The notes under the pieces were generated by a model that did no database searches, had not been told where the DNA came from, and worked only from the letters and a program-made list of their open reading frames with translations. Of a stretch of 63,101 nucleotides of DNA, positions 25,901 through 57,363 are shown one piece after another. This DNA is from a virus (taxonomy: Duplodnaviria > Caudoviricetes): IMG/VR virus record IMGVR_UViG_3300014613_000003, positions 1 to 63,101 of that record; one strand, 5' to 3'. A program made the position numbers and the translations under genes. The number at the start of each line of letters is the position of its first letter. Position 1 is the first letter of the stretch.

Positions 25901-28900
25901 AAGCGCAAGATCCTGAGCCAAGAGCATCCCGACGACATTGAGCCACTGTTGAAGCCGAAAGCCGAGCCGGCCGCCAAGGCGCCCGAGCCTGAGACTGCGC
26001 CGGAGTCAACCAGCATTGCGGTGCGCAGCATTCGCGCGGGCAAGCAGCTGGCCCTTGCGCTGGAAGCTATCGGCTTTACCAAGATCGAAGGCACCAACGG
26101 CATGAAGCATGTAGTGGAGGGCGCCGGCCGCGCCGCCACCACCAGCGTTCGCCCCATCCGCACGGACGACCAGATCCAGTTCCAGGTCTCGTCAGTGACC
26201 ACCAGTATGCAAGACGGTCGCATGAAATCGGCAGCGCCGGGCATGACGGAAACCTTCGACAGCATGGACGAGGCGGTCGCCCTGGCCGCGCAGTGGCAGG
26301 AAGTAAACCGCAAGTGGGTACGTGACGCGGTAGCGCCGTCCGGTACAGCTCAAGCCGCCGATACTGGAGTCCCGATCGAGGACGCCCGCAAGAGCGACAA
26401 GCTACGCCAGGCGCGCAAGATGGGACTGGACGCATACAACGCAGGCGAGGAACGCACGCCGCCGGCATGGATGGGCGAGGGTGATATTGCTGATGCCTGG
26501 CTGGTCGGCTTTGGTGACGGCATCGCGGCGAATCTCCAGCGCAACATGGACGCCGCCAAGGAGCAGGAGAAGGTCGCCGCGCCTGACCTTGCGCAGCAGC
26601 TCGCCGGCATGAGCAACGCCGCCCTGTCGTCGCTGATAGACGATATCGCCGCCGAGGACGCACAGGTCGCCGACACGGCCAAGCCTGCGCCCAAGCGCAA
26701 GCGCAAGACCCAGCCGAAGGCCAAGGACGCCACGCCGAAGCCGCGTAGCACCACGTCGCCGGCCGAAAGCGCCGACGAAACCGACGCTGCCGACGTCGAG
26801 CGCACTGCCGGCGAGATTGCCAAGAGCTTCGGCTACAATGTCAGCAGTGCCGGCATGGAAGCGATCAAGGGGCTTACCGAGCTGTTTGGTGGATCCGGCA
26901 AGCTGTCCAGCGGTCTGACGTTTGACGAGGAAACCTACGCCAAGGCCAAGCCGCACTTCCAAGCCATGTTGCGTGACGCACAGGCAGCCGGGCACGACCT
27001 GGCGCAGTTCGTCCGGACGGTATTGCAGAGCTTCGGAACCGGCGTAAAGCCGTACATCATCCGCTACGCCAACGACCTTCGGGACGAGGTGGCGCAGCCG
27101 CAGGAGAACACCAATGGCACAGACAGCACTCAGCCCGCAGTGGATCGCGGAAATCCGGCAGGAGTACCAGGCGCTGCTGGCGGACGAGGAAACGATGCAC
27201 AATCGGGATCTGCACCGGCGGATTCTGACGGCGTGGCGTCTGGAGAGCCCGAAAATGTGGGCGAACCTGGCGCGGGCGGGACTGACGACGCCGCTGGCCT
27301 ACGTCCTGCAAAACCGGATGTGGACGGAAATGGACGAGCTGCTGGGGCAGGGCGTGCCGGTAACGGACGCGAAGGAACAGGCCGAGCGAAACCATCTGAT
27401 GATGGAGCCCGAGCAGACCGAAGCCCAAGCGTAACCCCGACCAAGGCGCCCGCCGAGGTCAGTCCAGGCAATCCCGGCCCTGGCAATTTCCATGTAGCTG
27501 ACCCGCTCAAGATCGTAGGTGGCGGCCAGGTCGCCCGCTTCGACAAGAACCGTGCGGCGATCGACCTGTACAACGACCTGCGCGCCGAAGGCCGTCCGGC
27601 CACCCGTGAAGAACAGGAAACACTCGCCGGCTATACCGGCTGGGGTTCGTTCGGTCAGGAGTTGTTCCAAGGCAGTTGGGCGCACCCGGCGCCTAAGAGC
27701 GGCTGGGAAGCGCGCGATAGCTGGTTGCGCGACAACCTGGGGCAAACCGAGTGGGAAGGCCTGCAACGCTCGATCACCAACGCCCACTACACCGACCCGC
27801 CGACCGTTATGGCGATGTGGGAAATGGTGAAGCGCATGGGCTTCGACGGCGGCCGTGTTCTGGAGCCGTCCATGGGTATCGGCAACTTCTTTGGCATGAT
27901 GCCGGCCGACCTCAAGGCGCGCAGTCAGCTTGCCGGCATCGAGCTTGATCCGGTCACGGGCGGCATGGCCAAGCTGCTGTACCCCGAGGCTAACGTCCAG
28001 GTGAAGGGCTACCAGGATTCCAAGACGCCCGACGGCTTCTATGACCTGGTGATAGGAAACTGGCCGTTCGAGGACACGGTGATCGCCGATCGCCGGTACC
28101 AGCGCCTGAACCCGTACCTACACGACTACTTTTTCCTGAAAGCGGTGGACCAGGCGCGCGCGGGCGGCCTGGTGGTCGGCATTACGTCCAAGGGCAGCAT
28201 GGACAAGAAGTCGATCGGGATCCGCGCCGAGCTGGCCAAGAAGGCCGAGCTAGTGGCGTCGTTCCGCTTGCCGTCTGGCGCCTTCAAGGAATACGCCGGT
28301 ACCAGCGTCGTGACGGATATCGTCATTCTGCGCAAGCGTCCCGAGCCGGTGCGCAACATCAGTGACGCCGGCTGGATTGAATCGGTCGACTACAAGACGC
28401 CGAGCGGCGAAACCGTCTCGATCAACGAGTATTACGTCAAGAACCCGCAGAACGTCATCGGCACTATCGACTTCGGCCACGGGACCACCTTCAAGCGGCC
28501 GGGCATGATCGTTCACCGCCCCGACAACATGGCCGAGCAGCTGGTACGCATCACTGCTATGGCGCCCGAGGGCGCTTTCCAGCCGGAGCGCCAAGCCAAA
28601 ACCGTCAGCTATGTGGCCAATCACACCGACGACCGCGAGAACTCGCTGATCCGTACCAAGGACGGCTTGTTCGTGGTGCGTGGCGAGTACCTGGCGCCGG
28701 CCGTCGACGTGCTGAGCTACAAGATCAAGAACGAAGCCACCAATGCCCAGCGTGAGGATCAGCTGGACCGCCTTATCACCCTGCGCAAGCAGTACGCCGC
28801 GCTGATCGACGCGCAGCGCACCGGCGACGCAAAGACCGAGCGTAAAGCGCTCAAGGCGAGCTACGACGCCTTTGTCGCCAAGCACGGCACGATCAACGGC

Positions 28901-31900
28901 AGTTACGGCCTCAAGTACCTACAGCGCATTGACGACCCGTTCTACGCCTCCCTGGCGGCGCTGGAGATTCAAGGCAAGGACGGCGCCCTGGTGCCCTCGG
29001 CGATCATGTCCAAGGCCACCACGCGCGGCGCGCTGAACATCCAGAGCCCGAGCATCACCGATGCCTACGTGCTGGCGCGCAACCAGTCGATCAACCCAAC
29101 CATTGAGCAGGTCGCTGAGCTGGCGAAGAAGCCGGCCGCCGAGGTGAAAGCCGAGCTACTGGCTAAGGGTGCTGTGTTCGAGCTGCCGAGCGGCGACGTG
29201 GTGCCGGCCGATATCTACCTGTCGGGCAACGTGCGCGAGAAGCTGCGCGATGCCAAGGCCGCCGTCGCCGAAGGCCTGGCGCAGCTGCAAAGCAACGTCG
29301 CCGCCCTGGAGAAGGTGGTGCCGGCCGACGTGCCGTACTACAAGATCGAGGCGCAAATGGGCGCGTCGTGGGTATCGACCGGCATCTATGCCGAGTACGT
29401 CGCCCATATGCTCAACCTGACCACGCCGGACGGCATCGACGTGAGCTATTCCAACGGTCGTTGGAAAATCAAGCTGCCCAAGGGGGCGAACAATCGCGCC
29501 GAGGCCAGCGCCGGGTTTGGTACCCGAGAGGTGCCATTCTCCCGCCTGGTCAACGCCGCGATCACCAACCAGACAATCAACATCACCCGCAAGGGCAGCG
29601 ACGGCAAGAGCTACAACGACCCCGAGGCGACGAAGGAGGTCAACGGCAAGATCAGCGAAATCCGCCAGCGCTTCGGCGAATGGCTGTGGTCCGACCCCGA
29701 GCGCCGCAGCGCCGTGGAGCGCGAGTACAACGACGCCCGCAACGCCTACGCCACGCCGAACTTTGACGGCTCCGTGCTGGGCTTCGAAGGCATGGCGCTG
29801 AGCCTGGGCAACGGCCCGTTCGACCTGCGCAAGCATCAGATGGATGCGATCTGGCGCGCCCTGGTCATGCGCCGCTCGCTCAACGCGCACGAAGTCGGTA
29901 CCGGCAAGACCTTCACCATGGGCGGCATCGCCGTGGAGTCGCGCCGCTACGGCATCGCCAAGAAGCCGCTGATTCTGGCGCACAACGCCAACAGCAAGTC
30001 GGTCGCCGCTGAAATCCAGATGATGTACCCGGCCGCCAAGGTGCTCTACATCGACAACCTGTCGCCCGATACCGTCGATATCAAGCTGCGCCAGATCGCC
30101 AACGACGATTGGGACGCGGTGGTACTGCCGCACTCGCTGATCGACCGTCTGGCGTTCAAGGAAGAAACCCTCATGGCGATCGCCTACGAGGAAATCCGCG
30201 AGCTGGAAATCGCCGCCGCTGAGGCTGCCGCCGAGGATGGCGTGGATCTGACCAAGGAAATGCTCGACGATGAAAAGGCGCTGGAGAAACTGCGCTCCGT
30301 CACTGCGAAAGACCTGGTGAAAACCCGCAACAAGATCATTAACACGATCAAAAAGCAGGCGCAGCAGGCCTCCCGAGAGGGCGCGACCGCGTTCGAGGAT
30401 CTAGGCATTGACATGGTGCTGGTGGACGAGGCGCACGAGTTCAAGAAGCCGCCGTTCTCCACGCAGATGAAGATGAAGGGTCTACAAACCCAATCGTCGA
30501 ACCGCTCGATCGCGCTGGCGTTCCTGACCAAGTACATACGCACCAACAATGCCGGCGGCAACGTCCACCTGTTCACCGGGACACCGATCACCAACACGCT
30601 GACCGAAGTGTTCCACCAGATGCGCTACATCATGCAAGAGGAAATGGAGGCGGCCGGCGTCGATCAGTGGGACGGCTGGTTCGGCTCGTTTGCCCGTGAA
30701 GTCACCGACGTTGAACTGAACGCCGCGGCTGAGTACGAGGCCGTCACGCGCCTGTCCGCCTTTATCAACGTGCCCGAGCTGCGCCGGATGATCGGGCAGT
30801 ACATGGACGTGGTATTCGCCGACGACATGCCGGAAATGAAGCCGCGCCGAACCGCCACCGGCAAACTGTTGAGCGATTCGGATCTGACCGAGGCCGAGCG
30901 CGCCGAGCTGCTGAACGGCCGCACCGAGCAGGCCAAGGACCGCCCGTACAAGAAGGTCATCGTTGATACCGCCGACCTGACCGACGAACAGAAGATCGAG
31001 TTCCAGAAGATCCAGGGCTACGCCCGTGCCTGGCGCAACATGAGCGGCAAAGAGCGCAAGCAGGCAATGAACGCCGGCGACCCTGAATCGCCGATCATCT
31101 ACGAAAACCTGGCAGGCAAAGCCAGCTTTGACGTGCGCCTGAACCGTGGCGCCGAGCTGGCCGGGCAGGAAGGGCGTGTGCCGGACACCGACGACAGCAA
31201 GTCGAGCCGCGTGATTCGCAACGTGCTGGAGATATACGGCTCGCACCCGCTCGCCACGCAGGTGATTTTCGCGCAGCAAGGCCTGTCGACCACCGCGACC
31301 AAGAGCGTTGGTCCTGTCGGCGACAAGCGTAAGGTGACGTACAAGACGTTCTCCACCATGCGCGATATGGTCGAGCGCCTGGTCCAGCAGGGCATCCCGC
31401 GCGAGCAGATCGCGATCGTCGACGGCAGCACCAGCAAGGACAAGCGTAAGGCGATCGCCGATGCCATGAACCGCGCGGAGATTCGTGTGGTCATTGGCAG
31501 TTCGCAGTCGCTTGGCGTGGGCGTGAACATGCAGCGCAACCTGCGCGCCATGCACCACATGGATGCCCCATGGATGCCGGGCGACCTGGAGCAGCGCAAT
31601 GGCCGCGGCCACCGCCAGGGCAACCAGTGGAACACGGTGCTCGAGTACCGCTACCTGACCGACCGCCTGGACGGGCGCCGCTGGCAGGTGCTGGCGATCA
31701 AGCAGCGCTTTATCACGGCGTTCCTCAAGGCCAATGACGCTGACCGCGTGATTGAAGGCGACGCCGCCGGCGAGGAAGAAAGCGACATCCTCGAAACCTT
31801 CGCCGAGGCGGCCGGGGATCCGCGCATTCTGGTGCGTGAAAAGCTGAACAAGAAGATCGACCAGCTGCAATCGCGCGAGCGTCTACACGGCCAGGCTGTG

Positions 31901-34900
31901 TCGGATGCCCGCCGGTCGCTGCGCATCACCCGCGAGCGCCGCGACGAGCAGCGCGCCAAGCTCAAGGCGCTGGACGATGCCGGCGTGGTCGAGGCCGTGG
32001 AGGCGCTGACCAAGGCCACCATGGGCGCTGGCTTCACCATGACCGTGGACGGCACCGAGTACGACACCCGTAAGGATGCCGAGGCCGCCATTGCTGCCTT
32101 TGCTGAGGAACACGTCCGCACCGGCGACAAGCGCCAGCACTCGGTCGGAAACTTCGGCGGCCACGCGCTGAGCCTGTCCTGGCCGCAGTGGGCCGATCAG
32201 CCGGTTATGACGGTGGATATCAACGGCACGCCGCTATCGAGCCGTAGCCTGCGGATGCAGAGCCTGGAAACCGCCCTGCGCGGCTATCCGGAGGAAATCC
32301 AGAAGCAACGCAATGAAGTGGTCGAGGCGGCGCGCACCCTTACCCGCCTGGAGCAGGTAGCGGCCGAGCCGTTCCACATGGCTGCCGACCTGGAGCGCGC
32401 CAAGAAGGACTACGAGCTGCTGGAGAAAGACCTGGAGCAAAACCCGGTACCGCCGCCGGCATGGCTGCGCAGTGGCGTGCCGGTCGATACCGAAGTGACC
32501 TGGAAGAACAAGACCTTTGTAGTCACTGGCCACCGCTGGAACAAAGACGGCTGGTTCGTGCTGGCGGCGGATGCCAAGGGCAACGTAGTGATTCCATACA
32601 CCGAGGCGCGGGACGCGCAAGGGATGGCCATCTACGAGGAGCGCGCTTTCGAGGCGCCGGAAGTGGTCACGAAGGACAACCCGGCAGGCCTGACCGAGGC
32701 CGACCGCGTACCGGAAGATTCAGGCGTCCGGCTCAGTCGTGCCGGTGGGCGTCCGTCCGGTGCTACCCGCGTCAGTTATCTCGACCGGCGGACAGTAGAA
32801 CAACTCGCCGTCGAAGCCGTGGGCGAAGCCACCGCGCGCGATCGGTTTGTCTTCACCAGCTACGCCGACCTTCCCGAGGATGTGAAAGCGGAAGCTACGC
32901 GCCAGGGCGCGGCGCCACGAACGGTACAGGGTCTTTACAGTCCCAAACATAACAAGACCTTCATTATTGACGATCGGTTTACCAGCGCAGACGAAGCGAA
33001 GGGCATCATGTTCCATGAGCATTATGTCCACTTCGGCCTGCGCGCCAAGTATGGGCTCCAGCTGGGGCCGCAACTGCGCCAGCTGCTGAACGGCGTCGGC
33101 GGTCTGGACGGTATACGCAAGCTGTCCCGCGAGCAGGGTATCAACCTGGCCGCCTACGAGCGTGGCATCCTGGGCAATCCGGAAATCGCCGCATCCAAGC
33201 AGCCGCTTATCCTGATGGAGGAATTGCTGGCGCACATTGGCGAAACCACCGGCTCGCTACGCCGCCTGCTGGAGGAGTTTGTGGGAATGCTGCGCGCCTG
33301 GGCACGCAAGGCGCGCTCTAACTGGTTCGCCGAGCTGGGCGTTACCGACATGGCCTACGTGCTGCGCGAGGCTCGAAATGCGGCCAAGCAGGCCGACCGG
33401 GCGCCCAAGGGCCAGCCGATGTTCAAGCTGGCCGGTGGCGTCGACCAGACCGGCACCGATGCGTTCCAGCGCTGGTTTGGCGACTCCAAGGTAGTCGACA
33501 AACAGGGCGAGCCGCGCGTGCTGTATCACGGCACCGCCAATGACTTCACCGTGTTCGAGAATCGGTCGGGCAACAGCACCGGGCACGCCACGTCGGACCT
33601 GGGCTACTTTATGACCACCGAACGCAGCAGCGCCGAGGGCTATGCCCGCAACGCCAGCGACGGCATGCCAGGGCTGTCGAAGGTCATGGAGCTGTATGCG
33701 TCGATCAAGAACCCCTACACCGCCACGCTGGCGGAAATGCAGGCGATCGAAAACCCGCTCCAGGCGCGTCGATTCCGCGCCAAGCTGGAGCAGGCTGGGC
33801 ACGACGGCATCCATATCCCGGCGCAAAAGGCCTGGGTCGCGTTCGCCAACTACCAGATCAAGTCGGCCACCGACAACGTGGGCACCTTCGACGACTTCGA
33901 TGCTGATATTCGGTTCAGCCTGGCCGGCGGCTTCCTGGGCCGCCGCGAGCCGTTCGAGCTGACCGCGCGCAACGCCAAGCGCAGCCTGAAAGGCCGCCTG
34001 GCTGACCTGAAACCGGCACTGCTGGGCGCGCTGCCGCTGACCTACATGCGCGACTTTGCTCCGCAGTCGATGACCGCGCTATCGGCCTACATGGACGAGA
34101 AACGCGCCATGGATGCCGATCGCAACGAAATGCACACCCGCTATGACGCGATCGCACAGCGCTGGCTGAAACTGCGCTGGACCGATCGCAAGGCTGAGCA
34201 GCGCCTGGCCGACCTCATGCACTCGGCAACCCTGGAAGGCGTAGACCCCAGCAAGCCGATCAAGGACAGCTACACGCCCGAGCAGAAGGCGACCTATAAC
34301 CGTCTGCGGATGCAGTACCAATCGCTGCCGGAAGGGCATCGCGCGATGTTTGGCGATGCGCGGGACGCCTACAAGCAACAGGTCACGACCCTGGAGGGTG
34401 TGATCGAGGAAAACATCCGCAAGTCGGCCGAGTACGCCAAGAAGCGCGCGCGCCGCGATCGGGATGCCGATATCGAGCGGGCCAAGGACGAGCTGACCGG
34501 CGACGAGCTGGACGAAGCCCTGGAGGCGGCCGACAAGCGCTACAACGGCCGCGTGGCGTCGGCTGAGCAGGGTGGCAGCGCGAAGATCCTGCTGCTGCGC
34601 CAGAAGTTCGAGAGCATGCGGGTCGACGAGCCTTACTTCCCGCTCAAGCGCTACGGCGAATACTTCGTTGCGCTGCGCGACGGTGACGAACTGGTGTCGT
34701 TCTCGATGTTCGAGAGCGCCGCCGACATGGAGGCCGCCGCCGCTGAGCTGCGCAAGACCTACCCGAGCCTGGACGTGAAGGTGGGCCGGCAGTCGAATAA
34801 GCAGGAGCTGGAGGGCGCGGTGGACCCGGCCTTTATCGCCGACTTGCAGGACGTGGTATCGCGGATGCCCAACAGCAAGGAACTGTCCGACCAGATTTAC

Positions 34901-36658
34901 CAGATGTACCTGGAAACCATGCCGGACTTCTCCATGCGCAAGGGCTTCATTCACCGGAAGAAGACGGCCGGCTTCGACCGTGACGCCATGCGTGCCTTTG
35001 CCAGCTCCATGTTCCATAGCTCGTACCAGATCGCCCGACTGAAACACTCGCTGGAAATGAACGAGCTGGTCGAGCAGGTCGAGGAACAGGCCAAGGCCGC
35101 TGCCGATCCGGTGGACGCTATGACCATTGCGAACGAGCTCAGAAAACGCCATGAGTGGGTGATGGCGCCCAAGGGCGGCAAGATCGCGCAGCACATTACA
35201 TCGGCCGCGTTCGTCTATCAGCTGGGCCTGACCCCGGCCGCTGCGCTGGTGAACACCTCGCAAACCTGGATGATGGGTATCCCGATCCTGGGCGCGCGCT
35301 TTGGCAGCGAGACGAAAGCCATGGCGGCGCTGGCCAAGGCGTCCAAGGACTTCGTACAGGGTCGCGGCCACATCGAGAAGACGCTGGAGGGCGACGAAGC
35401 GCTGGCCGCTGCCGAGTTCATCCGCATGGGCTTGTGGGACAAGACTCAATCACATGACTTGGCCGGCGTCGGCGACACCGGCGTGGAATACAACCCGCTG
35501 CGCCATAAGGTGATGGGCTATATCAGCTGGGCGTTCCACAACGCCGAGCGCTACAACCGAGAGGTTACGTCGCTGGCCGCTTACCGCATGGCGCGCGAGA
35601 GCGGCCTGGACCATGAGGCAGCGATCAAGGAATCGGTCGAACTGACCTACACAACCCACTTCGACTATTCGAGCGGCAACCGCGCCCGGTACCTGCAAAA
35701 CGACACGGCCAAGGTCTTGTTCGTGTTCCGCCAGCACTCGATCAACATGCTGGCGCGCCTGGTGATTGATATCCGCGGCGCCATGAAGGGCGAGACACCG
35801 GAGGTCAAGAAGGCCGCCAAGCGTCGTCTGGCGGGCATGTTCTCGATGTTCGCGCTGTTCGCCGGCGCCATGGGCATTCCCGGTATGACGGCCATTCTGG
35901 CGCTGCTGGACCTGTTCGATGACGAAGACGACCCGTGGAGCGCCGAGGACAAGATCAAGCGCAACCTGGTGGAAGCGCTGGGGCCGGACGTGGCCAAGGT
36001 GGTCTTGCACGGTGCCCCCGGTACCGCGCTGGATCTGTCGCTGACCGAGCGTATCGGCATGGGCAGCCTGTGGTTCTGGTCGCCTGGCCGCGAGCTGGAA
36101 GGCAAGGACTCGTATCTGTACTGGATGGAGCAGGTACTGGGCGCTGCGCCGGCGATGGTCAGCAATGCCTTTACCGGCATGAGCATGATCGGCGAGGGCC
36201 ACGTCTGGCGCGGTATCGAGGCGATGATGCCCAAGGCGATCAAGGATGTGATGCGTTCGGGCCGCTACGCGCAGGAAGGCGTACAGACCATGAACGGCGC
36301 GTCCCTGGTCGACGACGTGAGTACCTGGAACCTGATTTCTCAGGCGATGGGCTTCACGCCGGCGCACATTGCCGAGCGCTACGACACCAACAGCGCCTTG
36401 AAGACCGCCGAACAGCACGTCCTGAACGAGCGCCGCAGCATCCTCAACCGTTACGCCATGGCCATGCGTCAGGGCGACAACGAGACGCGCGGCGCGCTGC
36501 TGGAGCGGATCCGCTCGTTCAACGGCCGGTACCCGCAGTACCCCATCACCGGCAAGACCATATCGGCATCGCTCAAGGCCCGCGCGCGCCGTGAGGCTGA
36601 GGCCGAGGGCGGTCTGACGATCAACCGTCGTTTGGAGTTCCTGCGCGACCAGCTGTGA
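22991..36658 (+). CDS. Giant DarB-like polyvalent internal virion protein (ParB-N-like, N6-adenine MTase, SNF2 helicase, zincin-like, ART-like, PLxRFG domains)
   Basis: VLDGHHQW (~25010); NAHYTDP, LEPSMGIGNF, IGNWPF (~27780-28070); AHEVGTGKT (~29885), DEAH (~30425), QRNGRGHRQGN; FHEHYVH (~33010); WFGDSKVVD...LYHGT (~33470); YFPLKRYG (~34635). Confidence 0.9.
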   Translation: MADLKPWEEYAQQQPGSTPALKPWEEYGGTTAPEASGVIDTLKEGTKSAGRAIGSAVNTYTGNADAVVEKAAAQQEAPKDERLANFYSDVEKNSADDSEDAGVLDAVGNVGKAIWDNPAGAGLAVVEQIPNSVPTLAGGFAGMKGGAALGTAVGGPVGAAVGGIAGGLAGMFLGNTAIETGHKAMAAADDGEYTPEEMDQVKREGAIKGGVITGVDALTLGAGGRLAGAMQRTVSTAMESATRKALIDRGVDVADEASVLAARNDPAISAAVRAAQESAVKATDTLKRRAAEAGTLMSMETVGEGVGEYLGELAATGEGNVTDAVLESLLSVGQSGAETVWNMTRKRERPGMWTEAAAIADPTLDQAAPLEDPAVDTSTVQPLPSEGNPAPAPVPRPDPSNGPLSAAAAAMPAAPIAGPLADAVPAAEAVAEQPAAEATVSAEGPLADAPPMNDYAAEQPQAAAEVPATSEPVATPSQRAILTRRGVPVEQIARLSQKAAGDLIKQQNKTQQAGKPEPQQMGLQEPAAVESELREQLGYLERQAKSAGGWTAPLSRERARLRAALEQFGGEQAAKQPAADPIQGQDIDGDWMTFAEQSGTKQVPRANMPQIKAEHRGAMVNFLNARGITHQDESVPAASLKPTQGEFSRKKVEQAKAYTGGNRSILVSSDNHVLDGHHQWLAAREAGEDVKVIRLGAPIEDLLTAAAEFPSSTTAEGATTAQAPEKPAAEQVKAARKPKQEAMPTQAFKSTAGVGDILAVKERYSDDKFGVSWSSTDIASAGSMEEAAAIAKAVAESGADNITDMRAAAAKFRSAAPADQMAVKDAAPATPDAAPVKWFASESKANDFIAKKKLSATHQVVKNGSKYEIQPLAEQQGDLIVQQPPVVEPTPAAEPVVEQVEEAAKAPEPSVEAAEQDTDSQKPAVPSDAELELASRHKKIDKTLDLMDDAQITDLYARANLAGAATPVEQKRKILSQEHPDDIEPLLKPKAEPAAKAPEPETAPESTSIAVRSIRAGKQLALALEAIGFTKIEGTNGMKHVVEGAGRAATTSVRPIRTDDQIQFQVSSVTTSMQDGRMKSAAPGMTETFDSMDEAVALAAQWQEVNRKWVRDAVAPSGTAQAADTGVPIEDARKSDKLRQARKMGLDAYNAGEERTPPAWMGEGDIADAWLVGFGDGIAANLQRNMDAAKEQEKVAAPDLAQQLAGMSNAALSSLIDDIAAEDAQVADTAKPAPKRKRKTQPKAKDATPKPRSTTSPAESADETDAADVERTAGEIAKSFGYNVSSAGMEAIKGLTELFGGSGKLSSGLTFDEETYAKAKPHFQAMLRDAQAAGHDLAQFVRTVLQSFGTGVKPYIIRYANDLRDEVAQPQENTNGTDSTQPAVDRGNPAGVPGAAGGRGNDAQSGSAPADSDGVASGEPENVGEPGAGGTDDAAGLRPAKPDVDGNGRAAGAGRAGNGREGTGRAKPSDDGARADRSPSVTPTKAPAEVSPGNPGPGNFHVADPLKIVGGGQVARFDKNRAAIDLYNDLRAEGRPATREEQETLAGYTGWGSFGQELFQGSWAHPAPKSGWEARDSWLRDNLGQTEWEGLQRSITNAHYTDPPTVMAMWEMVKRMGFDGGRVLEPSMGIGNFFGMMPADLKARSQLAGIELDPVTGGMAKLLYPEANVQVKGYQDSKTPDGFYDLVIGNWPFEDTVIADRRYQRLNPYLHDYFFLKAVDQARAGGLVVGITSKGSMDKKSIGIRAELAKKAELVASFRLPSGAFKEYAGTSVVTDIVILRKRPEPVRNISDAGWIESVDYKTPSGETVSINEYYVKNPQNVIGTIDFGHGTTFKRPGMIVHRPDNMAEQLVRITAMAPEGAFQPERQAKTVSYVANHTDDRENSLIRTKDGLFVVRGEYLAPAVDVLSYKIKNEATNAQREDQLDRLITLRKQYAALIDAQRTGDAKTERKALKASYDAFVAKHGTINGSYGLKYLQRIDDPFYASLAALEIQGKDGALVPSAIMSKATTRGALNIQSPSITDAYVLARNQSINPTIEQVAELAKKPAAEVKAELLAKGAVFELPSGDVVPADIYLSGNVREKLRDAKAAVAEGLAQLQSNVAALEKVVPADVPYYKIEAQMGASWVSTGIYAEYVAHMLNLTTPDGIDVSYSNGRWKIKLPKGANNRAEASAGFGTREVPFSRLVNAAITNQTINITRKGSDGKSYNDPEATKEVNGKISEIRQRFGEWLWSDPERRSAVEREYNDARNAYATPNFDGSVLGFEGMALSLGNGPFDLRKHQMDAIWRALVMRRSLNAHEVGTGKTFTMGGIAVESRRYGIAKKPLILAHNANSKSVAAEIQMMYPAAKVLYIDNLSPDTVDIKLRQIANDDWDAVVLPHSLIDRLAFKEETLMAIAYEEIRELEIAAAEAAAEDGVDLTKEMLDDEKALEKLRSVTAKDLVKTRNKIINTIKKQAQQASREGATAFEDLGIDMVLVDEAHEFKKPPFSTQMKMKGLQTQSSNRSIALAFLTKYIRTNNAGGNVHLFTGTPITNTLTEVFHQMRYIMQEEMEAAGVDQWDGWFGSFAREVTDVELNAAAEYEAVTRLSAFINVPELRRMIGQYMDVVFADDMPEMKPRRTATGKLLSDSDLTEAERAELLNGRTEQAKDRPYKKVIVDTADLTDEQKIEFQKIQGYARAWRNMSGKERKQAMNAGDPESPIIYENLAGKASFDVRLNRGAELAGQEGRVPDTDDSKSSRVIRNVLEIYGSHPLATQVIFAQQGLSTTATKSVGPVGDKRKVTYKTFSTMRDMVERLVQQGIPREQIAIVDGSTSKDKRKAIADAMNRAEIRVVIGSSQSLGVGVNMQRNLRAMHHMDAPWMPGDLEQRNGRGHRQGNQWNTVLEYRYLTDRLDGRRWQVLAIKQRFITAFLKANDADRVIEGDAAGEEESDILETFAEAAGDPRILVREKLNKKIDQLQSRERLHGQAVSDARRSLRITRERRDEQRAKLKALDDAGVVEAVEALTKATMGAGFTMTVDGTEYDTRKDAEAAIAAFAEEHVRTGDKRQHSVGNFGGHALSLSWPQWADQPVMTVDINGTPLSSRSLRMQSLETALRGYPEEIQKQRNEVVEAARTLTRLEQVAAEPFHMAADLERAKKDYELLEKDLEQNPVPPPAWLRSGVPVDTEVTWKNKTFVVTGHRWNKDGWFVLAADAKGNVVIPYTEARDAQGMAIYEERAFEAPEVVTKDNPAGLTEADRVPEDSGVRLSRAGGRPSGATRVSYLDRRTVEQLAVEAVGEATARDRFVFTSYADLPEDVKAEATRQGAAPRTVQGLYSPKHNKTFIIDDRFTSADEAKGIMFHEHYVHFGLRAKYGLQLGPQLRQLLNGVGGLDGIRKLSREQGINLAAYERGILGNPEIAASKQPLILMEELLAHIGETTGSLRRLLEEFVGMLRAWARKARSNWFAELGVTDMAYVLREARNAAKQADRAPKGQPMFKLAGGVDQTGTDAFQRWFGDSKVVDKQGEPRVLYHGTANDFTVFENRSGNSTGHATSDLGYFMTTERSSAEGYARNASDGMPGLSKVMELYASIKNPYTATLAEMQAIENPLQARRFRAKLEQAGHDGIHIPAQKAWVAFANYQIKSATDNVGTFDDFDADIRFSLAGGFLGRREPFELTARNAKRSLKGRLADLKPALLGALPLTYMRDFAPQSMTALSAYMDEKRAMDADRNEMHTRYDAIAQRWLKLRWTDRKAEQRLADLMHSATLEGVDPSKPIKDSYTPEQKATYNRLRMQYQSLPEGHRAMFGDARDAYKQQVTTLEGVIEENIRKSAEYAKKRARRDRDADIERAKDELTGDELDEALEAADKRYNGRVASAEQGGSAKILLLRQKFESMRVDEPYFPLKRYGEYFVALRDGDELVSFSMFESAADMEAAAAELRKTYPSLDVKVGRQSNKQELEGAVDPAFIADLQDVVSRMPNSKELSDQIYQMYLETMPDFSMRKGFIHRKKTAGFDRDAMRAFASSMFHSSYQIARLKHSLEMNELVEQVEEQAKAAADPVDAMTIANELRKRHEWVMAPKGGKIAQHITSAAFVYQLGLTPAAALVNTSQTWMMGIPILGARFGSETKAMAALAKASKDFVQGRGHIEKTLEGDEALAAAEFIRMGLWDKTQSHDLAGVGDTGVEYNPLRHKVMGYISWAFHNAERYNREVTSLAAYRMARESGLDHEAAIKESVELTYTTHFDYSSGNRARYLQNDTAKVLFVFRQHSINMLARLVIDIRGAMKGETPEVKKAAKRRLAGMFSMFALFAGAMGIPGMTAILALLDLFDDEDDPWSAEDKIKRNLVEALGPDVAKVVLHGAPGTALDLSLTERIGMGSLWFWSPGRELEGKDSYLYWMEQVLGAAPAMVSNAFTGMSMIGEGHVWRGIEAMMPKAIKDVMRSGRYAQEGVQTMNGASLVDDVSTWNLISQAMGFTPAHIAERYDTNSALKTAEQHVLNERRSILNRYAMAMRQGDNETRGALLERIRSFNGRYPQYPITGKTISASLKARARREAEAEGGLTINRRLEFLRDQL
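27114..27434 (+). CDS. Nested (overprinted) 106-aa helical protein in the +1 frame of the giant gene
   Basis: AGGAG 7 nt before the ATG; high GC3 in this frame while the host frame turns low-complexity with A/T-ending codons. Confidence 0.75.
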   Translation: MAQTALSPQWIAEIRQEYQALLADEETMHNRDLHRRILTAWRLESPKMWANLARAGLTTPLAYVLQNRMWTEMDELLGQGVPVTDAKEQAERNHLMMEPEQTEAQA

Positions 36659-36679
36659 TGACCAGGTAAGCAACGCATG

Positions 36680-36704
36680 GGCGTCCTTCGGGGCGCCTTT
36701 TTTT
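36680..36704 (+). terminator. Rho-independent terminator
   Basis: GGCGTCC-TTCG-GGGCGCC followed by T7. Confidence 0.9.
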
Positions 36705-36720
36705 CGTCTGTGGTGTGAAT

Positions 36721-36749
36721 TTGATAAGCATACGGCTAGCGGCTAGTAT
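36721..36749 (+). promoter_or_regulatory. Sigma70-like promoter of the par operon
   Basis: TTGATA-N17-TAGTAT. Confidence 0.6.
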
Positions 36750-36797
36750 TCGCATGGTCAGCACCCCTATATCAACCCACTATCACACGGCAATCAT

Positions 36798-37490
36798 ATG
36801 ATTATAGTTGTAGGAAATTCTAAGGGCGGCGTCGGCAAATCGACCATCGCCGTAAACCTGGCTACCGCGCTGGCGCTCGCCGAGCATGACGTGCTGCTGG
36901 TCAATGGCGACCGTCAGGACACGGCGCAAGTGGCGCTCTACAACCGGGACAGTGACGGCGTAATGCCGCGCGTCGAGGTGGTCCAGCTGGCCGAGGGCAA
37001 AGAGCTGGAGGCCAAGCTGCCGGGCATGGTGCCTGGCTATGACCACGTGATTATCGACGCGGGCGGGCGCGACTCGACGGCGCTGCGGGCGGCGCTGCTG
37101 CTGTGCGACCTGGTGCTGGTGCCCTATGCGCCAGGTTCGCCGGAAGTGTGGGCGCTGGACGATATCGACGCCCTGGTGCGCGAGGCGCGTAACAATCGGC
37201 CCGCGAATAGACCGCTGCGCGCGCTGTCCTTTTTAAACATGGCCGAGTCGACCCTGTGGCGGTCGGCCGACAACATGGCCGCCGTCAAGGCCGCCGGGCA
37301 GATGACGGCGATCGAGCCGCTGATGACCGAGCGCAAGCTGGGCAAGAAAACCGTACTGGAGCCGCTGATGGTGGTGCGCCGCAAGGCCTTCGGGAATGCG
37401 ATAGGGTCAGGCGTCTGTGTCGAGGAACTACGCCCGCGCAACCCCAAGGCCTGCAAAGAATTGGAAGTGCTGATTAGCACATTGGGATAG
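36798..37490 (+). CDS. parA: ParA-family partition ATPase (short, type Ib)
   Basis: KGGVGKSTIAVNLA deviant Walker A; VIIDAGGRDS. Confidence 0.92.
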   Translation: MIIVVGNSKGGVGKSTIAVNLATALALAEHDVLLVNGDRQDTAQVALYNRDSDGVMPRVEVVQLAEGKELEAKLPGMVPGYDHVIIDAGGRDSTALRAALLLCDLVLVPYAPGSPEVWALDDIDALVREARNNRPANRPLRALSFLNMAESTLWRSADNMAAVKAAGQMTAIEPLMTERKLGKKTVLEPLMVVRRKAFGNAIGSGVCVEELRPRNPKACKELEVLISTLG

Positions 37491-37535
37491 GATGCCCATC
37501 GTTCAGCAATCACATGACTATCGACTGGTAACAAT

Positions 37536-37814
37536 ATGACTATCAAAGAGCGCCCTAAACCTACCGTCGGCGCCAATCTGCCCTCCAGCAAGCGGCCTAG
37601 CGACTTCGTTAACGGCGCGCCGGACAGCGGCAAGGTCAATCGCAAGGGCTCCGGCCGTGGCGTGACCGTCGGCAAGAAAGAACAGATCCCGGTCATCATG
37701 GCGCCAGATCTGTTAAGCCGCCTGGATGAAGTGGCTGGCAAGCTGAGCATGTCGCGCTCGGCGGTCATCACCCTGGCAGTGAATCAGTTCCTCAAGAGTG
37801 AGATAGCGCAATGA
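37536..37814 (+). CDS. Ribbon-helix-helix partition partner (ParG-like)
   Basis: Follows parA; flexible N-terminus, then KEQIPVIMAPDLLSRLDEVAGKLSMSRSAVITLAV. Confidence 0.8.
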   Translation: MTIKERPKPTVGANLPSSKRPSDFVNGAPDSGKVNRKGSGRGVTVGKKEQIPVIMAPDLLSRLDEVAGKLSMSRSAVITLAVNQFLKSEIAQ

Positions 37815-38141
37815 CCAGTCCCTACGAAATTAGCTACGAAACGCTGGCGGCCGCGCGGGCCGGGGCTGGCCAGCTGAGTTCGCAGGAGCTTATGGCGGCA
37901 GCCGTAGCAGGCGCCATTGGGGGGGGTGCTGGAGGGTCAGCATGCGTCGATAGAGGAAGAAGTCGGCGACCTTCGCCCGCTGCGGGAGGCCACCGAGGCG
38001 CTGCTGGCGCACAACTCCCGCATCGAGAGCCGCAGGCGCAACCAGCTGCAAGCCGAGTTCGAGCGCCAGGCCACGCCCGAGCGGGTGCTGGCGCTGCTGG
38101 ACGCACTTTGTTACCCACAACAGGACGTTACCGATGATTGA
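37811..38141 (+). pseudogene. Gene frameshifted at a G8 tract (C-terminus Ead/Ea22-like)
   Basis: G8 at 37919-37926; G7 would fuse MTSPYEISY... to VLEGQHASIEEE...ATPERVLALLD. Confidence 0.55.
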
Positions 38142-38541
38142 TACCAGATCCCCGTTCTACCGCCACCGTGAGCTGCTGCTGACGGGCACCTACGGCGTGG
38201 CTGAAAGCCTGCAACAGTTCGTGCTGTCACTGTACAACGGCGCCCGGACGCAGTTCGCAGCGAACAAGCTGGTCAACTACGACGACGAGCATTTTACGAT
38301 CTTCGCCGATTTTGCCGCGTACTACCGCAAACACGCCGAGAACGACGAGGCATTTATGGCGGTGTGCCGGGAAATGTGGGCGCAGCGTGAGCGCTGGGGG
38401 CAGGAGCACCTGGCCCGCGTTGAGCTTCACATGGGTATTGACCCGAAGCATTACGACGAAGGCGAAAGCGAATGGCACGCCCAGCGGCGCTGGCTCGACT
38501 CGGAAACCGAGCGGATGCGGGAAAAGGGCTGGATCGACTGA
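38134..38541 (+). CDS. Hypothetical protein
   Basis: Coupled 135-aa ORF with good codon bias, ending at a terminator. Confidence 0.7.
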   Translation: MIDTRSPFYRHRELLLTGTYGVAESLQQFVLSLYNGARTQFAANKLVNYDDEHFTIFADFAAYYRKHAENDEAFMAVCREMWAQRERWGQEHLARVELHMGIDPKHYDEGESEWHAQRRWLDSETERMREKGWID

Positions 38542-38556
38542 CTCGCTCGCAGAAAC

Positions 38557-38592
38557 AAAAACGGGGCGCCCTGGTCAGGAGCGCCCCGTTTT
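38557..38592. terminator. Bidirectional terminator
   Basis: AAAACGGGGCGC...GCGCCCCGTTTT. Confidence 0.85.
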
Positions 38593-38676
38593 GTTGTGTG
38601 CAATCTGTGGGTCTGGCGTGTGGCGGTGTGTGCGCGGACTTCGCATAATCTGTTTGCCGTGCTGGCCAGTGGCCAT

Positions 38677-38704
38677 CCTTCGCATAACCCCCCTTATGTT
38701 AAAT
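38677..38704 (+). other. dif: dif-like XerC/XerD recombination site
   Basis: CCTTCGCATAA-cccccc-TTATGTTAAAT: canonical XerD arm, XerC-like arm, 6-bp spacer. Confidence 0.85.
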
Positions 38705-38925
38705 GCAAACGGCCGCACTGATCCCTGGTGGACGCGACAGTCACCGGAAACGAAAAAAGGGGGAAGTCCCGAATATAGCCGGACTTCCCCCTTCGTTCAA
38801 GCCCGCCTATCAGCCGTGGCAAAAGCCCGCCATGCCCGTAGCGAACCACCACACCTCTTGCGCGGCCATGAACCCAAGCCCCAACAGGAACCCGGCGCAT
38901 AGCAGCGTCGTCGCGTTGAGTTCCT

Positions 38926-44722: not shown

Positions 44723-44965
44723 TTATTGCGGGTTGATCTGCGCTTTCAGTGCGGCGATCGTCAGTCGCAACTCGGCATGACCTTCAAGGTAGCTTTCAAC
44801 GGCCTGAATCATCACCGTGTTCATGCTGCTGTGGCTTGCCTTGGCCACCGCCTGTATCTGGTCGCGCATCCCGTCGGGCAGGCGCACGACGAACTTGTCC
44901 ATGTCGCGCGACGAGGTACTTAAAAGTCCCTTGGTTGAGCGCAGGGGCTTTTTCTTGGTAGTCAC
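44723..44965 (-). CDS. Arc/AmrZ-like RHH DNA-binding protein
   Basis: SSRDMDKFVVRLPDGMRDQIQAVAKASHSSMN closely resembles the AmrZ/Arc DNA-binding domain. Confidence 0.85.
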   Translation of the reverse strand: MTTKKKPLRSTKGLLSTSSRDMDKFVVRLPDGMRDQIQAVAKASHSSMNTVMIQAVESYLEGHAELRLTIAALKAQINPQ

Positions 44966-45930
44966 TTGGCTGCCTCCTTCTGCTGTTCCTCGGGTGCCTT
45001 CTCTGCCGGCTCCTGGTACCCGAACAGATCGCACAGCGCCTGGATGACTGCCACCAGCTGCAATACCTGAGTGCCGGCTGAATGCTTCCAGAGGTCTTCC
45101 ATGGTGTCGAAGTCCGGCGTCTCGCCATCAGCCTCCGATTCGTTATGGATGAACTCAATGCGGCGCAGGTGGAAGTCCTTGGTCAGCAGAAACGACACGG
45201 CGTTGGCGTGGACAAGCTCCAGGCGCGGAACTTCCATGCCGGCGCTGAGCGCTTCAATCAGGCCTTGGTGGGCGCTGTCCAGGTTGTCCAGGTCAAAGGT
45301 CGCCTTGGCGCCCTTCTCACCGGTCAGCACTACCGAGTCACCGACCTTGAAGCCTTCAAAGGCCTCTTTGTTGCAAATCTCGCCTTCGCAATCGGCGCCG
45401 TAATAGCTCTTTAGCCGCGTGGTCAGACCGCCCTTAACGTTGCTGACCCATATCGTGCTGGTTTCCAGCGCGCCGCAAGCCTCTACCAACAGGCCGACCA
45501 GGCGCCCCGCCACGTTCTTGTTGGTCGACGGAACGATCAGCGAACGGCTTTCAATGTGGTAGTAGGCGTTCAGCTCGGAGCGCTCGGGGAGCGTGTTCTT
45601 GATGGTGTTCAAGAACAGCTCTTCCTTGATGGTGCCGGCCTCGTCGTCGGTCAGCTGGCGTCCTAGCTCGGTTTCTTTAGCGTTCAGCGCCTCCAGCTGC
45701 GCCATACGCAGCGCCTTGATCGAGACAGGTTTCACGTCAGAGCGCAGGCGGAAAGCGAAACCGCCGGGAAACTCGGCCACCAGGCGGTCATCCAGGCAGG
45801 GCACGAAGCCGGACGCGCTGGCTTGCGTCTCCAGCACCGGCACAAACGGCTTTTCGGCCAGGTGGTCGGCGAGCGCTGCGGCAGCTGGGAGGGTGGCCTT
45901 GTAAACGATGGCGTTGCGAATCAGTTGCAT
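44962..45930 (-). CDS. rdgC: Recombination-associated protein RdgC (phage type)
   Basis: IRNAIVYK...SGFVP...FLLTKDFHLRRIEF; size and context. Confidence 0.8.
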   Translation of the reverse strand: MQLIRNAIVYKATLPAAAALADHLAEKPFVPVLETQASASGFVPCLDDRLVAEFPGGFAFRLRSDVKPVSIKALRMAQLEALNAKETELGRQLTDDEAGTIKEELFLNTIKNTLPERSELNAYYHIESRSLIVPSTNKNVAGRLVGLLVEACGALETSTIWVSNVKGGLTTRLKSYYGADCEGEICNKEAFEGFKVGDSVVLTGEKGAKATFDLDNLDSAHQGLIEALSAGMEVPRLELVHANAVSFLLTKDFHLRRIEFIHNESEADGETPDFDTMEDLWKHSAGTQVLQLVAVIQALCDLFGYQEPAEKAPEEQQKEAAK

Positions 45931-46923: not shown

Positions 46924-47994
46924 TTAAGCGGCTTTCAGAATCTCCATGGCATTGTCCCAGCCTTCCCAATTGTCGACACCCGCGGCGAGCAAGGCGTCGA
47001 GGATGGACTTGGCCTCCATCAGCTCGTTGTACTCGCGGACGGTGATGCTGATTTCCGGCTCGGGCTCCAGCGCGGCGGCTTGCGGCACGATCTGGATAGG
47101 CTGAGGGGTAGCGGCAGGGGCGACCGGCTCGGGGTCGGCTACGGGCTCAGCAGGCGCTACCGCGACCGGCTCAGGCTCCGTGACCGGCTCCAGCGCAGCG
47201 ACGCGGGCACGCTCCATTTCGGCCTGCTGGCGCTGCATTTCGGCTTGCTGGCGTTGCATTTCAGCCTGCTGGCGCTCCATGGCGGCCCGCTGCTCGTCCA
47301 TTTGCCGTTGCATTTCGTCCTGCTGGCGCTGCATTTCTTCGCGCTGGCGGCGCGCCTCGGCCTGCTGGGCTTCCATCTGGCGGCGCATTTCCGCCTGCTC
47401 GGCCTCCAGTTTCTTACGCGCTGTCTCGGCAGCCTCGAACGCCAGACGCTCAGTCAGCATCCGCGCCAGCTCGTCCAGGGCGTTGTCGCGGGCGGCGATC
47501 GCTTCCTTGGTCAGGTCGTAGAAGTCGTGCGAGGCGTCAATCTCGCCGACGCGATCGAGCATGTCGCTGATTTCGGTGCTGGACTTGCCGCGCACGCTGG
47601 CGGGCATGGCAATGATGGCGTCGACCTTGGCTTGCAGGCGGGCGATGCGCGCCTGGCGCTCGCGCTCGATACGGTCATCCACCTCTTTCTTGGCTGCCTT
47701 CATCGGATCTTCCAGGGCGACCAGTTCGGTGGTGATGCGCTTGGCTTCGGCGTCGATGATGCGGCCGGCTTGCAGGTAGGGCTCTTTCTCGCGCTTGCGA
47801 GCGGTTTCCAGGCTGGTGCGTAGCGTGGTCAGCTCTTTGATGCCTCCCTTCACGAAGGCGTAGCCCTCGTCAGTGTTGGCATCCGGCACGGCTGCATACT
47901 TCTCTTTCAGCAGCGCCAGCGCGGCGTCTGTGGCGCTGTACTCGGCAACATTGACGGTGCCGTTTTCGATATCTACCAGGTTCAAAGTGGTCAT
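46924..47994 (-). CDS. Coiled-coil recombination-module protein with EMQRQQA heptad repeats
   Basis: Between the annealase and ssb; 21-bp tandem repeats at about 47215-47390; C-terminal [10 protein letters not shown]. Confidence 0.7.
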
Positions 47995-49767: not shown

Positions 49768-49811
49768 GGGACGAAGCGGTCCCCCCGGAGCCTGCTGGAC
49801 TATTAAGTCCC
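49768..49811. promoter_or_regulatory. Tandem GGGAC-N6-GTCCC sites
   Basis: GGGACgaagcgGTCCC (49768-49783) and TGGACtattaaGTCCC (49796-49811). Confidence 0.6.
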
Positions 49812-50027
49812 TTTTTTGCCAATGGTTACGTCCGCGGCGCCGACGTATACGCGGCCTGGGTGGGGGGCTACTGGCACCTGGCCAATCAGTTCCTCGCGCT
49901 GGACGTGCATCTCAACCGGCGCATCGAAACCGAGCTTGACCTGGTTGCCGCTGATCGCGCAGACCGTGACCCAAATGTCTTCGCCGATCAGGATGCGCTC
50001 GCCGACGCGGCGGGTAAGGATAAGCAT
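49803..50027 (-). CDS. csrA: CsrA/RsmA-family RNA-binding protein
   Basis: MLILTRRVGERILIGEDI.VTV..I.GNQVKLGFDAP....V.REE. Confidence 0.93.
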   Translation of the reverse strand: MLILTRRVGERILIGEDIWVTVCAISGNQVKLGFDAPVEMHVQREELIGQVPVAPHPGRVYVGAADVTIGKKGT

Positions 50028-56838: not shown

Positions 56839-57363
56839 ATGACCCATCACGTCCGTACCGTCGCCGCGCCGAACTACACCGTCACCCCGATGGACGAGTT
56901 CGTCAGCCTCGAAGTCCACAACGATCTGATCATTGCCCGCGCCCTGGAAATACTGCGCGAGCGCCTGCATAAGCCGGGCGCCGCGCTGGAAAGCCCGCAA
57001 GCGGTGCGTGATTACCTGCGCCTGAGCCTGGCTGCCGAGAAAAGCGAGCGGTTCGGTTGCCTGTTTCTCGACTCCCGGCACCGGGTTATCGCCCTGGATC
57101 TGATGTTTCAGGGGTCGATCGACGGTGCCAGCGTCTACCCGCGCGAAGTGGTCAAGGCCGCACTGGCCCACAATGCAGCGGCGGTGGCGCTGGTGCATAA
57201 CCACCCGTCCGGCGACGTGGATCCGAGTCGGGCTGACCGCACCCTGACAAGCAAGCTGAAGGAGGCGCTGGCGCTGATCGACGTGCGCGTGCTCGACCAT
57301 TTCATTGTGGGCGGTGCCGGGAATGCGGACGTGCTCAGTTTTGCCGAGCGGGGGTACCTCTAA
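56839..57363 (+). CDS. radC: RadC/JAB-domain protein
   Basis: E.FGCLFLD...[10 protein letters not shown]...[14 protein letters not shown]...LDHFIVG. Confidence 0.93.

Follow-up and report, generated by a model that had tools for sequence, protein, structure and literature searches.

A partition gene pair and a host-type Xer site in the integrase position of a tailed-phage genome

The tailed-phage genome IMGVR_UViG_3300014613_000003 (Duplodnaviria; Caudoviricetes) carries, at positions 36,798 to 38,704, a parA gene, a gene for a ribbon-helix-helix (RHH) partner, two small open reading frames (ORFs) and a 28-bp dif-like site for the host recombinases XerC and XerD (XerCD). In five of the seven relatives looked at, this slot is held by an integrase. 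The stretch of DNA that was analysed, referred to here as the window, is the entire IMG/VR virus record of 63,101 bp. According to the best-supported reading, the integrase cassette of the lineage appears to have been replaced by a partition pair together with a site for host XerCD. We posit that the phage may live as a plasmid prophage whose dimers would be resolved by host XerCD at the 28-bp site, a proposal that we regard as evenly balanced between being right and being wrong. A plasmid prophage using host XerCD had already been suggested from the sequence alone (the original prediction), and the exchange in the integrase slot, together with the homology of ParA and the RHH protein to those of Burkholderia phage KS14, appears to support it.

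The integrase position

The original prediction had recognised no tyrosine or serine recombinase and no protelomerase. A six-frame hidden Markov model search came to the same result, being blank at E<=1 for PF00589, PF00239, PF16684 and PF00665 (tyrosine recombinase, serine recombinase, protelomerase and rve transposase, respectively), and no integrase PHROG was matched among the 70 ORFs of the window covered by our PHROG scan. XafT/DUF3653 (PF12375) had no match in the window at E<=10, and an FtsK_gamma domain was found nowhere in the genome.

Relatives were fetched with the last 400 residues of the giant virion protein encoded upstream of parA, which gave 10 loci from IMG/VR, 5 from JGI metagenomes and 4 from species genomes. 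Between 2 and 8,000 bases of DNA were available downstream of the giant gene, with at least 1.2 kb at 16 of the 19 loci. A dif-like site (at most 3 or 4 arm mismatches) was present in the flanks of none of the 19 relatives, and tblastn searches with ParA, the RHH protein and the neighbouring ORFs found no match in these flanks.

The downstream ORFs of six relative loci were scanned with Pfam, and Pseudomonas phage 8P, the nearest named phage, was read from its own annotation. The three closest relatives (L115, L116 and L119), which are classed as proviruses and in which the C-terminus of the giant protein is 79-80% identical, have a gene for a P4-type tyrosine integrase of 413 aa immediately behind the giant gene, where the record ends. 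In L120 the giant gene is followed by holin, lysozyme and integrase; in 8P, lysis genes come next and then a tyrosine integrase located where transcription converges. L122 shows lysis genes, after which its flank ends, and L127 and L130 carry other cargo after the giant gene.

The partition pair

The pair consists of a small ParA and an RHH protein and is type Ib-like, as originally predicted; the assignment is carried by Pfam and phrog_164 for ParA and by a fold model for the partner. The parA product (coordinates of all features in Table 1) matches the Pfam families AAA_31 (3.2e-15), MipZ, CbiA and ParA, as well as phrog_164 (ParA-like partition protein, 7.1e-33). The deviant Walker A motif KGGVGKST forms residues 9-16, and K9, G10, G11, G13, K14, T16, D38 and D87 are invariant across 40 homologues. 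The best homologues in 5.8 billion proteins are 48-52% identical and about 213 aa long, some of them named ParF or plasmid partition protein. A search of IMG/VR found no close relatives of ParA, and one with an alignment of the RHH family likewise found none. At the DNA level, the similarity of the module to PLSDB plasmids is limited to the first ~380 nt of parA, at 65-68%.

By sequence, the RHH partner is matched weakly (RHH_1, E 0.11; CopG, E 0.1). Its eight homologues are 56-72% identical and invariant in the C-terminal half. The AlphaFold model has a disordered N-tail and a strand-helix-helix arrangement with helices at residues 57-70 and 74-91, at a pLDDT of 80-89 over residues 50-90. The top Foldseek matches in the PDB are all RHH proteins (CopG, ORF56, Arc, MazE), with ParG (1p94) at rank 26; the TM-score by target is about 0.8, yet the best E-value is just 0.078. 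The modelled product may thus be described as an RHH protein with a flexible N-tail, as in type Ib systems. Full-length homologues of 34-43% identity, annotated as RHH or CopG, occur in 137 PLSDB plasmids. In one of these, the Pseudomonas aeruginosa plasmid pNECK1, the homologue sits between an AAA ATPase (ParA) and RepA, with the plasmid's own recombinase genes nearby.

A predicted complex of a ParA dimer with the RHH partner scored 0.42, the best of three controls scoring 0.02. The mark used for such predictions was reached by 116/157 solved complexes and by 2/215 mismatched pairs; at the mark, scores of at most 0.60 were obtained for only 18/157 solved complexes, plus both of the mismatched pairs that passed. 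The runs agreed in at least 64% of contacts, with a partner pLDDT of at least 59. The prediction lends weak support to the pairing. Three promoter-like matches were counted in the region, compared with a mean of 0.6 in shuffles, one of them being the candidate upstream of parA in Table 1. The motif ATGAYTATM occurs five times in the window (0.34 expected), with three copies in the par region, two of which lie at start codons. That the pair would act as a plasmid partition module is suggested by its homologies.

The Xer site and the host dif

Xer sites consist of two 11-bp arms around a non-conserved centre of 6-8 bp, as set out in parts of PMC11724359. The site of the phage, CCTTCGCATAA-CCCCCC-TTATGTTAAAT, has this layout, with the inner CATAA and TTATG being palindromic. 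The original prediction had placed a dif-like site with a C6 centre at the convergence of transcription, and its coordinates were confirmed. In the window it is the sole match to TTCGCATAA-N6-TTATGTTAAAT even when up to three mismatches are allowed, and 0/100 shuffles match. Plus-strand genes run up to 38541 on one side of the site, and minus-strand genes begin at 38926 on the other. The gap that holds it is untranscribed and is bounded by the last two terminator-like hairpins of Table 1.

The major capsid protein of phage 8P, whose host is P. stutzeri, is 71% identical to that of our phage, and the two genomes are colinear. The nearest prophage in a named genome is that of Azotobacter bryophylli (72% identity over the C-terminus of the giant protein). 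From these two relatives, the host is most likely a member of the Pseudomonadaceae. The Azotobacter bryophylli genome holds a single site, TTCGCATAA-TGTATA-TTATGTTAAAT, which is its dif, and the arms of the phage site equal those of this dif at 20/20 compared positions. The arm pattern is matched with at most one mismatch by 133/201 genomes of Azotobacter's family, in most of them as a single copy. Given this identity of the arms, host XerC and XerD should bind the phage site, and the arms thus seem to fit the recombinases of the predicted host.

The centre is different. The dif centres of most of these genomes are TGTATA, TCTATA or TATATA, and CCCCCC occurs in none of the listed sites. As the original prediction had pointed out, the C6 spacer is non-chromosomal: it differs from the host-type TGTATA at 6/6 positions and shares none with TCTATA or TATATA either, so that the site is not a captured chromosomal dif. 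The original prediction had also suggested a search for prophage copies at chromosomal dif; no CCCCCC-centred site was found in 185,579 species genomes (one each) or in JGI metagenome contigs. As a separate observation, five Pseudomonadaceae genomes (G133, G141, G170, G063 and G043) contain 2-5 sites whose arms are those of dif. The additional copies, with unusual centres, are on different contigs, which are probably plasmid DNA or some other mobile element.

A second XerC-type arm stands 39 bp upstream of the Xer site. Its predicted coordinates were likewise correct and it is an exact 9-mer copy. Exact TTCGCATAA occurs in the window at 38640 and 38679 only. Two copies of the 10-mer CTTCGCATAA are spaced 39 bp from each other; by base composition, another same-strand copy within 100 bp has a probability of ~7e-5. 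The extra arm is followed by TCTGTT and then by 11 bases that agree with the XerD arm at 3/11. The first three of these centre bases, TCT, are the start of the TCTATA centre common in Pseudomonadaceae. In small plasmids, the Xer site is accompanied on its XerC side by some 200 bp of accessory DNA, according to parts of PMC11724359, and the corresponding 200 bp of the phage contain a gene end, a terminator and the extra XerC arm.

Recurrence of the arms and a mosaic relative

IMG/VR was scanned for the arms of the phage site around any centre, which gave at least 112 loci. Among the 112 sites listed, the centre was TGTATA in 35, TCTATA in 16 and TATATA in 5, and the remaining 56 had 39 other centres, CCCCCC in none. 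Within 120 nt of these listed sites, a XerC-arm-like 9-mer (at most one mismatch) was found upstream on the same strand in 5/112 cases and downstream in 5/112. The idea that an extra XerC arm is a general design of viral Xer sites was rejected because of this rarity upstream among the matches listed.

Several related elements have alike flanks and different centres, such as L022 (TGCCCA), L044 (CGTGCA) and L071 (CGCACA). Further groups with alike flanks and the same arms, again differing in their centres, are L050, L054, L062, L072 and L077, as well as L048, L069, L089 and L114; CACACA/CCTACA/CATACA is another example. It looks as if Xer centres diversify between related viral elements.

A survey set was formed from every contig that reaches 24 kb (21 in all) among the 80 listed loci with a stated length, irrespective of virion type. 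PF00589 was missing from 20/21 of them, the exception being a provirus with a chromosomal centre, and 19/21 have a non-chromosomal centre. An AAA_31 ParA is encoded by 7/21, which corresponds to 7/14 of those that are at least 90% complete. This suggests that a design of partition genes and a Xer site without an integrase recurs, and that it is common and little noticed.

A mosaic relative of the region is a 49,340-nt contig of a marine sediment metagenome (run X2), known from alignment coordinates. It matches 34000-36805 with 116 differences, has 749 other letters in place of 36806-37611, which comprises parA and the first part of the RHH gene, and matches again at 37612-37814 (the C-terminus of the RHH protein) and in short pieces of the DUF7673-like gene that precedes the Xer site. 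Its last match, 38679-38800 (9 differences, 2 gaps), starts at the first base of TTCGCATAA. Runs X3 and X7 yielded short pieces of low likeness only. The RHH gene has homologues on contigs of 49-64 kb, which are of phage size and not of chromosome size. Besides the X2 contig, the contigs that carry such homologues include ones of 64,220, 53,767, 13,534 and 11,710 nt.

Persistence as a plasmid and the alternatives

The genome has the gene content of a phage-plasmid. According to the PHROG scan, it encodes a portal, major head and head closure proteins, terminase, holin, endolysin and spanin, along with an O/DnaD-like replication initiator, a single-stranded DNA-binding protein (SSB), exonucleases, NinB and RusA. 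A helicase-loader-like gene is also present, and the full virion, packaging and lysis set stands beside partition and replication genes. CheckV completeness is 100. A 123-bp direct terminal repeat (1-123 and 62979-63101) is present, and the large terminase gene spans both record ends, which indicates that these ends are the assembly cut of a circular or permuted genome and not physical ends.

We posit that the temperate phage would persist as a low-copy circular plasmid and would not be integrated. The ParF-like ATPase and its RHH partner would, by homology, partition the copies. Homologous recombination between sister copies would produce dimers, and host XerC and XerD, bound to the arms, would resolve these by a crossover between two directly repeated copies of the site. 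Tyrosine recombinases generally need matching centres for strand exchange. By this rule, a crossover with a chromosomal dif should fail because the phage centre shares no position with the chromosomal ones; the CCCCCC centre would thus block the exchange, keep the phage out of the chromosome and keep the site private. Activation might be provided by septal FtsK, in the way that it is on large plasmids whose 28-bp sites lack accessory sequences. Alternatively, some unknown accessory arrangement might act from the XerC side, and the extra XerC arm could belong to it. FtsK-driven recombination is restricted to 28-bp sites, without accessory sequences, according to sections of PMC11724359.

A number of points weigh against this proposal. 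Lysogeny, the plasmid state, binding and catalysis by the Xer proteins, the insulating centre and the route of activation are all read from sequence, and the host is deduced from relatives only. A CI-type repressor was not recognised among the gene products, the candidates being Cro/HTH-like (helix-turn-helix), Arc-like and RHH-like small proteins only. There is no clear centromere repeat array around the par operon, and the ATGAYTATM repeats are unconvincing in this role. The extra XerC arm has no role in the model. FtsK-orienting polar sequences (KOPS) are too few to show a polarity toward the Xer site, with 6 GGGNAGGG motifs on both strands and no pattern. To our knowledge, no Xer centre made up of C alone has been tested before, and recombination at such a centre may be poor. 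The only full-length holder of the region is the likely source metagenome (run X1), in the form of contigs, one of which, of 63,008 nt, spans it without a joint; since such contigs cannot show junctions or copy number, they give no direct sign of a plasmid state. Finally, Enterobacteriaceae plasmids of 30-100 kb mostly have no Xer site and encode their own resolvase, as parts of PMC11724359 describe, so that a Xer-dependent replicon of 63 kb would be off this trend.

The module could instead be a hitch-hiking plasmid fragment, in which the Xer site is a passenger and ParA is active, if at all, in pseudolysogeny or a carrier state, or the phage could be effectively lytic. We consider this unlikely. 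It would agree with the mosaic nature of the block, as parA is swapped in the X2 relative while the flanks are kept, with the 48-52% identity that is the closest ParA comes to any of 5.8 billion proteins, with the lack of the module in the IMG/VR relatives and with the lack of a clear CI repressor. Against it, both arms are intact, with 20/20 positions agreeing in the comparison, the gap that holds the site is untranscribed and has a terminator at either end, and the X2 relative, from another habitat, keeps a stretch that starts at the site. Moreover, the integrase that the relatives need is missing, so that a temperate descendant would need a substitute, and the same combination recurs in unrelated viral contigs.

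It is decidedly unlikely, in our judgement, that the phage behaves like a mobile element that integrates by exploiting Xer (IMEX), which host XerCD would integrate at the chromosomal dif through the 28-bp site or the half-site at the extra arm, with ParA serving a replicative phase only. Like IMEX phages it has no integrase and has arms of the host type, and its module stands in the integrase/attP slot of relatives. The extra XerC arm, whose adjoining centre begins with TCT and whose XerD side is degenerate, is reminiscent of the attP of TLC-phi, which is described in parts of PMC9226527 as being without a good XerD arm, and it could also be a VGJ-phi-like integration site; TCTATA centres are moreover frequent in the host family. 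The sites themselves fit poorly, however, the full site having a centre that agrees with the chromosomal ones at 0/6 positions and the half-site agreeing with the XerD arm at 3/11. Neither XafT/DUF3653 nor an FtsK-gamma domain is available to drive strand exchange independently of FtsK. The species genomes and JGI metagenome contigs yielded neither an integrated copy nor a hybrid site, although absence from collections is no proof, and the phage-size contigs that hold the RHH homologues do not point to a chromosomal location. A dedicated partition pair would not be expected in an integrating element, and IMEX phages are non-tailed in the parts of PMC12715192 that treat them.

The extra arm allows a bolder version of the plasmid-prophage proposal, which we would call a long shot. 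A further XerC molecule, sitting 39 bp away from the core, might constitute a minimal accessory element and make resolution dimer-selective and FtsK-independent, a mode unseen at dif, at cer/psi or in IMEX, in a tailed-phage lineage that would have swapped its integrase for a host-Xer plasmid lifestyle. Cointegration, in which the private centre would match the Xer site of another resident replicon (plasmid or chromid) with which the phage fuses and separates, seems very improbable: some host-family genomes do hold extra sites with the same arms and odd centres on other contigs, and centres differ between related viral elements, but a CCCCCC-centred site is found in none of the 185,579 species genomes, the JGI contigs or the listed sites of the family.

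If the plasmid-prophage proposal is correct and host XerCD is borrowed, the host range of the lysogen would be tied to the Xer arms of the host, and six central bases could decide between plasmid life and fusion with the chromosome. In the comparison with close relatives, integrase and par-plus-Xer-site stand as interchangeable cassettes at one genome position, a clean natural case of a switch in the mode of lysogeny. If the design is as common as our IMG/VR survey suggests, calls of 'temperate' that are based on an integrase would miss such phages.

Neighbouring features and other genes

The features of the region are compiled in Table 1. The DUF7673-like protein is matched by Pfam DUF7673 at E 0.002, short of the cut-off, and its Atlas neighbours are hypothetical or DUF7673 proteins. 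A stretch to the left of parA (36734-36755), with TTCGCAT in it and an overlap with the promoter-like -10 box, shares 73% identity with 38664-38685, the stretch leading into the XerC arm of the Xer site. This 22-nt similarity was considered as a border scar of the module and rejected, since it does not surpass other two-copy repeats that arise by chance in that output.

Table 1. Coordinates of the features in and around the par-Xer region of the window.
Feature	Position	Strand	Remarks
parA	36798-37490	+	230 aa; small ParF-like Walker partition ATPase, no N-terminal HTH
RHH partner gene	37536-37814	+	92 aa, disordered N-tail; presumed centromere-binding, ParG-like architecture
Xer site, 28 bp	38677-38704	+	XerC arm 38677-38687, centre CCCCCC 38688-38693, XerD arm 38694-38704
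Extra XerC-type arm ACTTCGCATAA	38638-38648	+	39 bp upstream of the XerC arm of the Xer site
Candidate promoter, sigma-70-like TTGATA-17-TAGTAT	36721-36749	+	upstream of parA
Candidate operator/centromere boxes ATGAYTATM	37506-37544	+	intergenic; third copy 36798-36806 overlaps parA start codon
Giant virion-protein gene	22991-36658	+	4,555 aa; ResIII/Helicase_C, ART-PolyVal (ADP-ribosyltransferase) and LPD39 domains
Terminator-like hairpin	36679-36698	+	ends giant virion-protein gene
Overlapping 108-aa frame	37811-38137	+	alternative call to the 74-aa ORF
Small ORF, 74 aa	37917-38141	+	G+C at third codon positions (GC3) 0.79; no family match
DUF7673-like protein, 135 aa	38134-38541	+	last gene of plus-strand operon
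G+C-rich hairpin, A/T runs on both sides	38558-38592	.	terminator-like in both directions
Hairpin closing minus-strand operon	38752-38798	-	18-nt arms, 89% complementary

The polyvalent giant virion protein is conserved in the relatives, its counterpart in 8P being a 5,145-aa 'structural protein'. Several further genes of the window were noted. A CsrA/RsmA homologue (49803-50027, minus strand; Pfam CsrA 1.2e-20) lies beside the early regulatory region, and a 162-aa protein (61414-61902, plus strand) contains an RNA polymerase alpha C-terminal domain (PF03118, 3.5e-11). In a 356-aa protein (46924-47994, minus strand), the last ~40 residues match the T7 gp5.9 RecBCD inhibitor (PF25708, 8e-12; PHROGs 6234 and 4790). 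The minus strand also encodes RdgC (44962-45930), without an FtsK-gamma tail, and an Arc-like protein (44723-45034), and the plus strand encodes RadC (56839-57363).

Comparison with known systems

Separate replicons keep distinct dif centres, as with dif1 and dif2 of Vibrio cholerae. Compared with the Pseudomonadaceae chromosomal dif, the phage site has identical arms at the 20 compared positions and the same location at the convergence of transcription, whereas its centre differs from TGTATA at every position, KOPS polarity is lacking and the site does not lie opposite the presumed origin near 51 kb. It resembles the plasmid sites cer (ColE1), psi (pSC101) and those of the 28-bp R27 class in its two 11-bp arms, its short non-chromosomal centre, the lack of a recombinase on the replicon and the presumed function in dimer resolution, its 28 bp placing it in the FtsK-dependent class, as far as these sites are described in parts of PMC11724359. 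It differs from plasmid Xer sites in its 63-kb tailed-phage carrier, its all-C centre and the second XerC arm 39 bp upstream. An ArgR/ArcA/PepA accessory region like that of cer and psi was not recognised at the phage site, in a comparison that used no model of Pseudomonas accessory sites.

A close parallel is Burkholderia phage KS14, a P2-like phage without an integrase whose plasmid prophage was demonstrated by plasmid preparation, according to parts of PMC3091744. Like the phage described here, it is a tailed temperate phage in which a homologous ParA is followed by a protein with a tail and an RHH end. KS14 gp40 (ParA) is 42% identical to our ParA, and gp41, encoded directly after it, has the same N-terminal motif and a disordered tail plus RHH end (35% over 43 residues, E 1e-4, pairwise). 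KS14 differs in having no dif-like site at up to five arm mismatches, a Gin-like serine recombinase and an unrelated virion type.

IMEX phages (the CTX-phi, VGJ-phi and TLC-phi types and dif-type double jelly-roll phages) also combine the lack of an integrase with a dif-like site for host XerCD, as described in parts of PMC9226527 and PMC12715192. In contrast to our phage, those parts of the two papers portray them as non-tailed elements that integrate at dif, with centres that partly match dif, many of them with XafT and none with partition genes. The phage studied here has a foreign centre, no XafT and a par pair. Tyroviruses, the nearest case found in the literature to a tailed phage-plasmid dependent on host Xer, encode their own Xer-like recombinases, according to parts of PMC9703825.

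The partition pair can be compared with the type Ib system ParF/ParG, which belongs to plasmid TP228. Both have a small Walker ParA followed, in the same gene order, by a small dimeric RHH protein with a flexible N-tail. Differences are that the RHH partner has no detectable sequence similarity to ParG and that no parH-like repeat array was identified in the phage.

The usual view of phage-plasmids is that they carry a dimer resolvase themselves, such as Cre of P1, or sidestep the problem by being linear, such as N15. In P1, dimers are resolved by Cre/lox at one site beside the functions that maintain this tailed phage as a plasmid; the recombinase is P1's own, whereas the phage described here would borrow that of its host. 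Plasmids and IMEX phages are well known to carry Xer sites. In the main texts of openly accessible full-text papers, no description was found of a tailed phage-plasmid that depends on host XerCD acting at a dif-like site.

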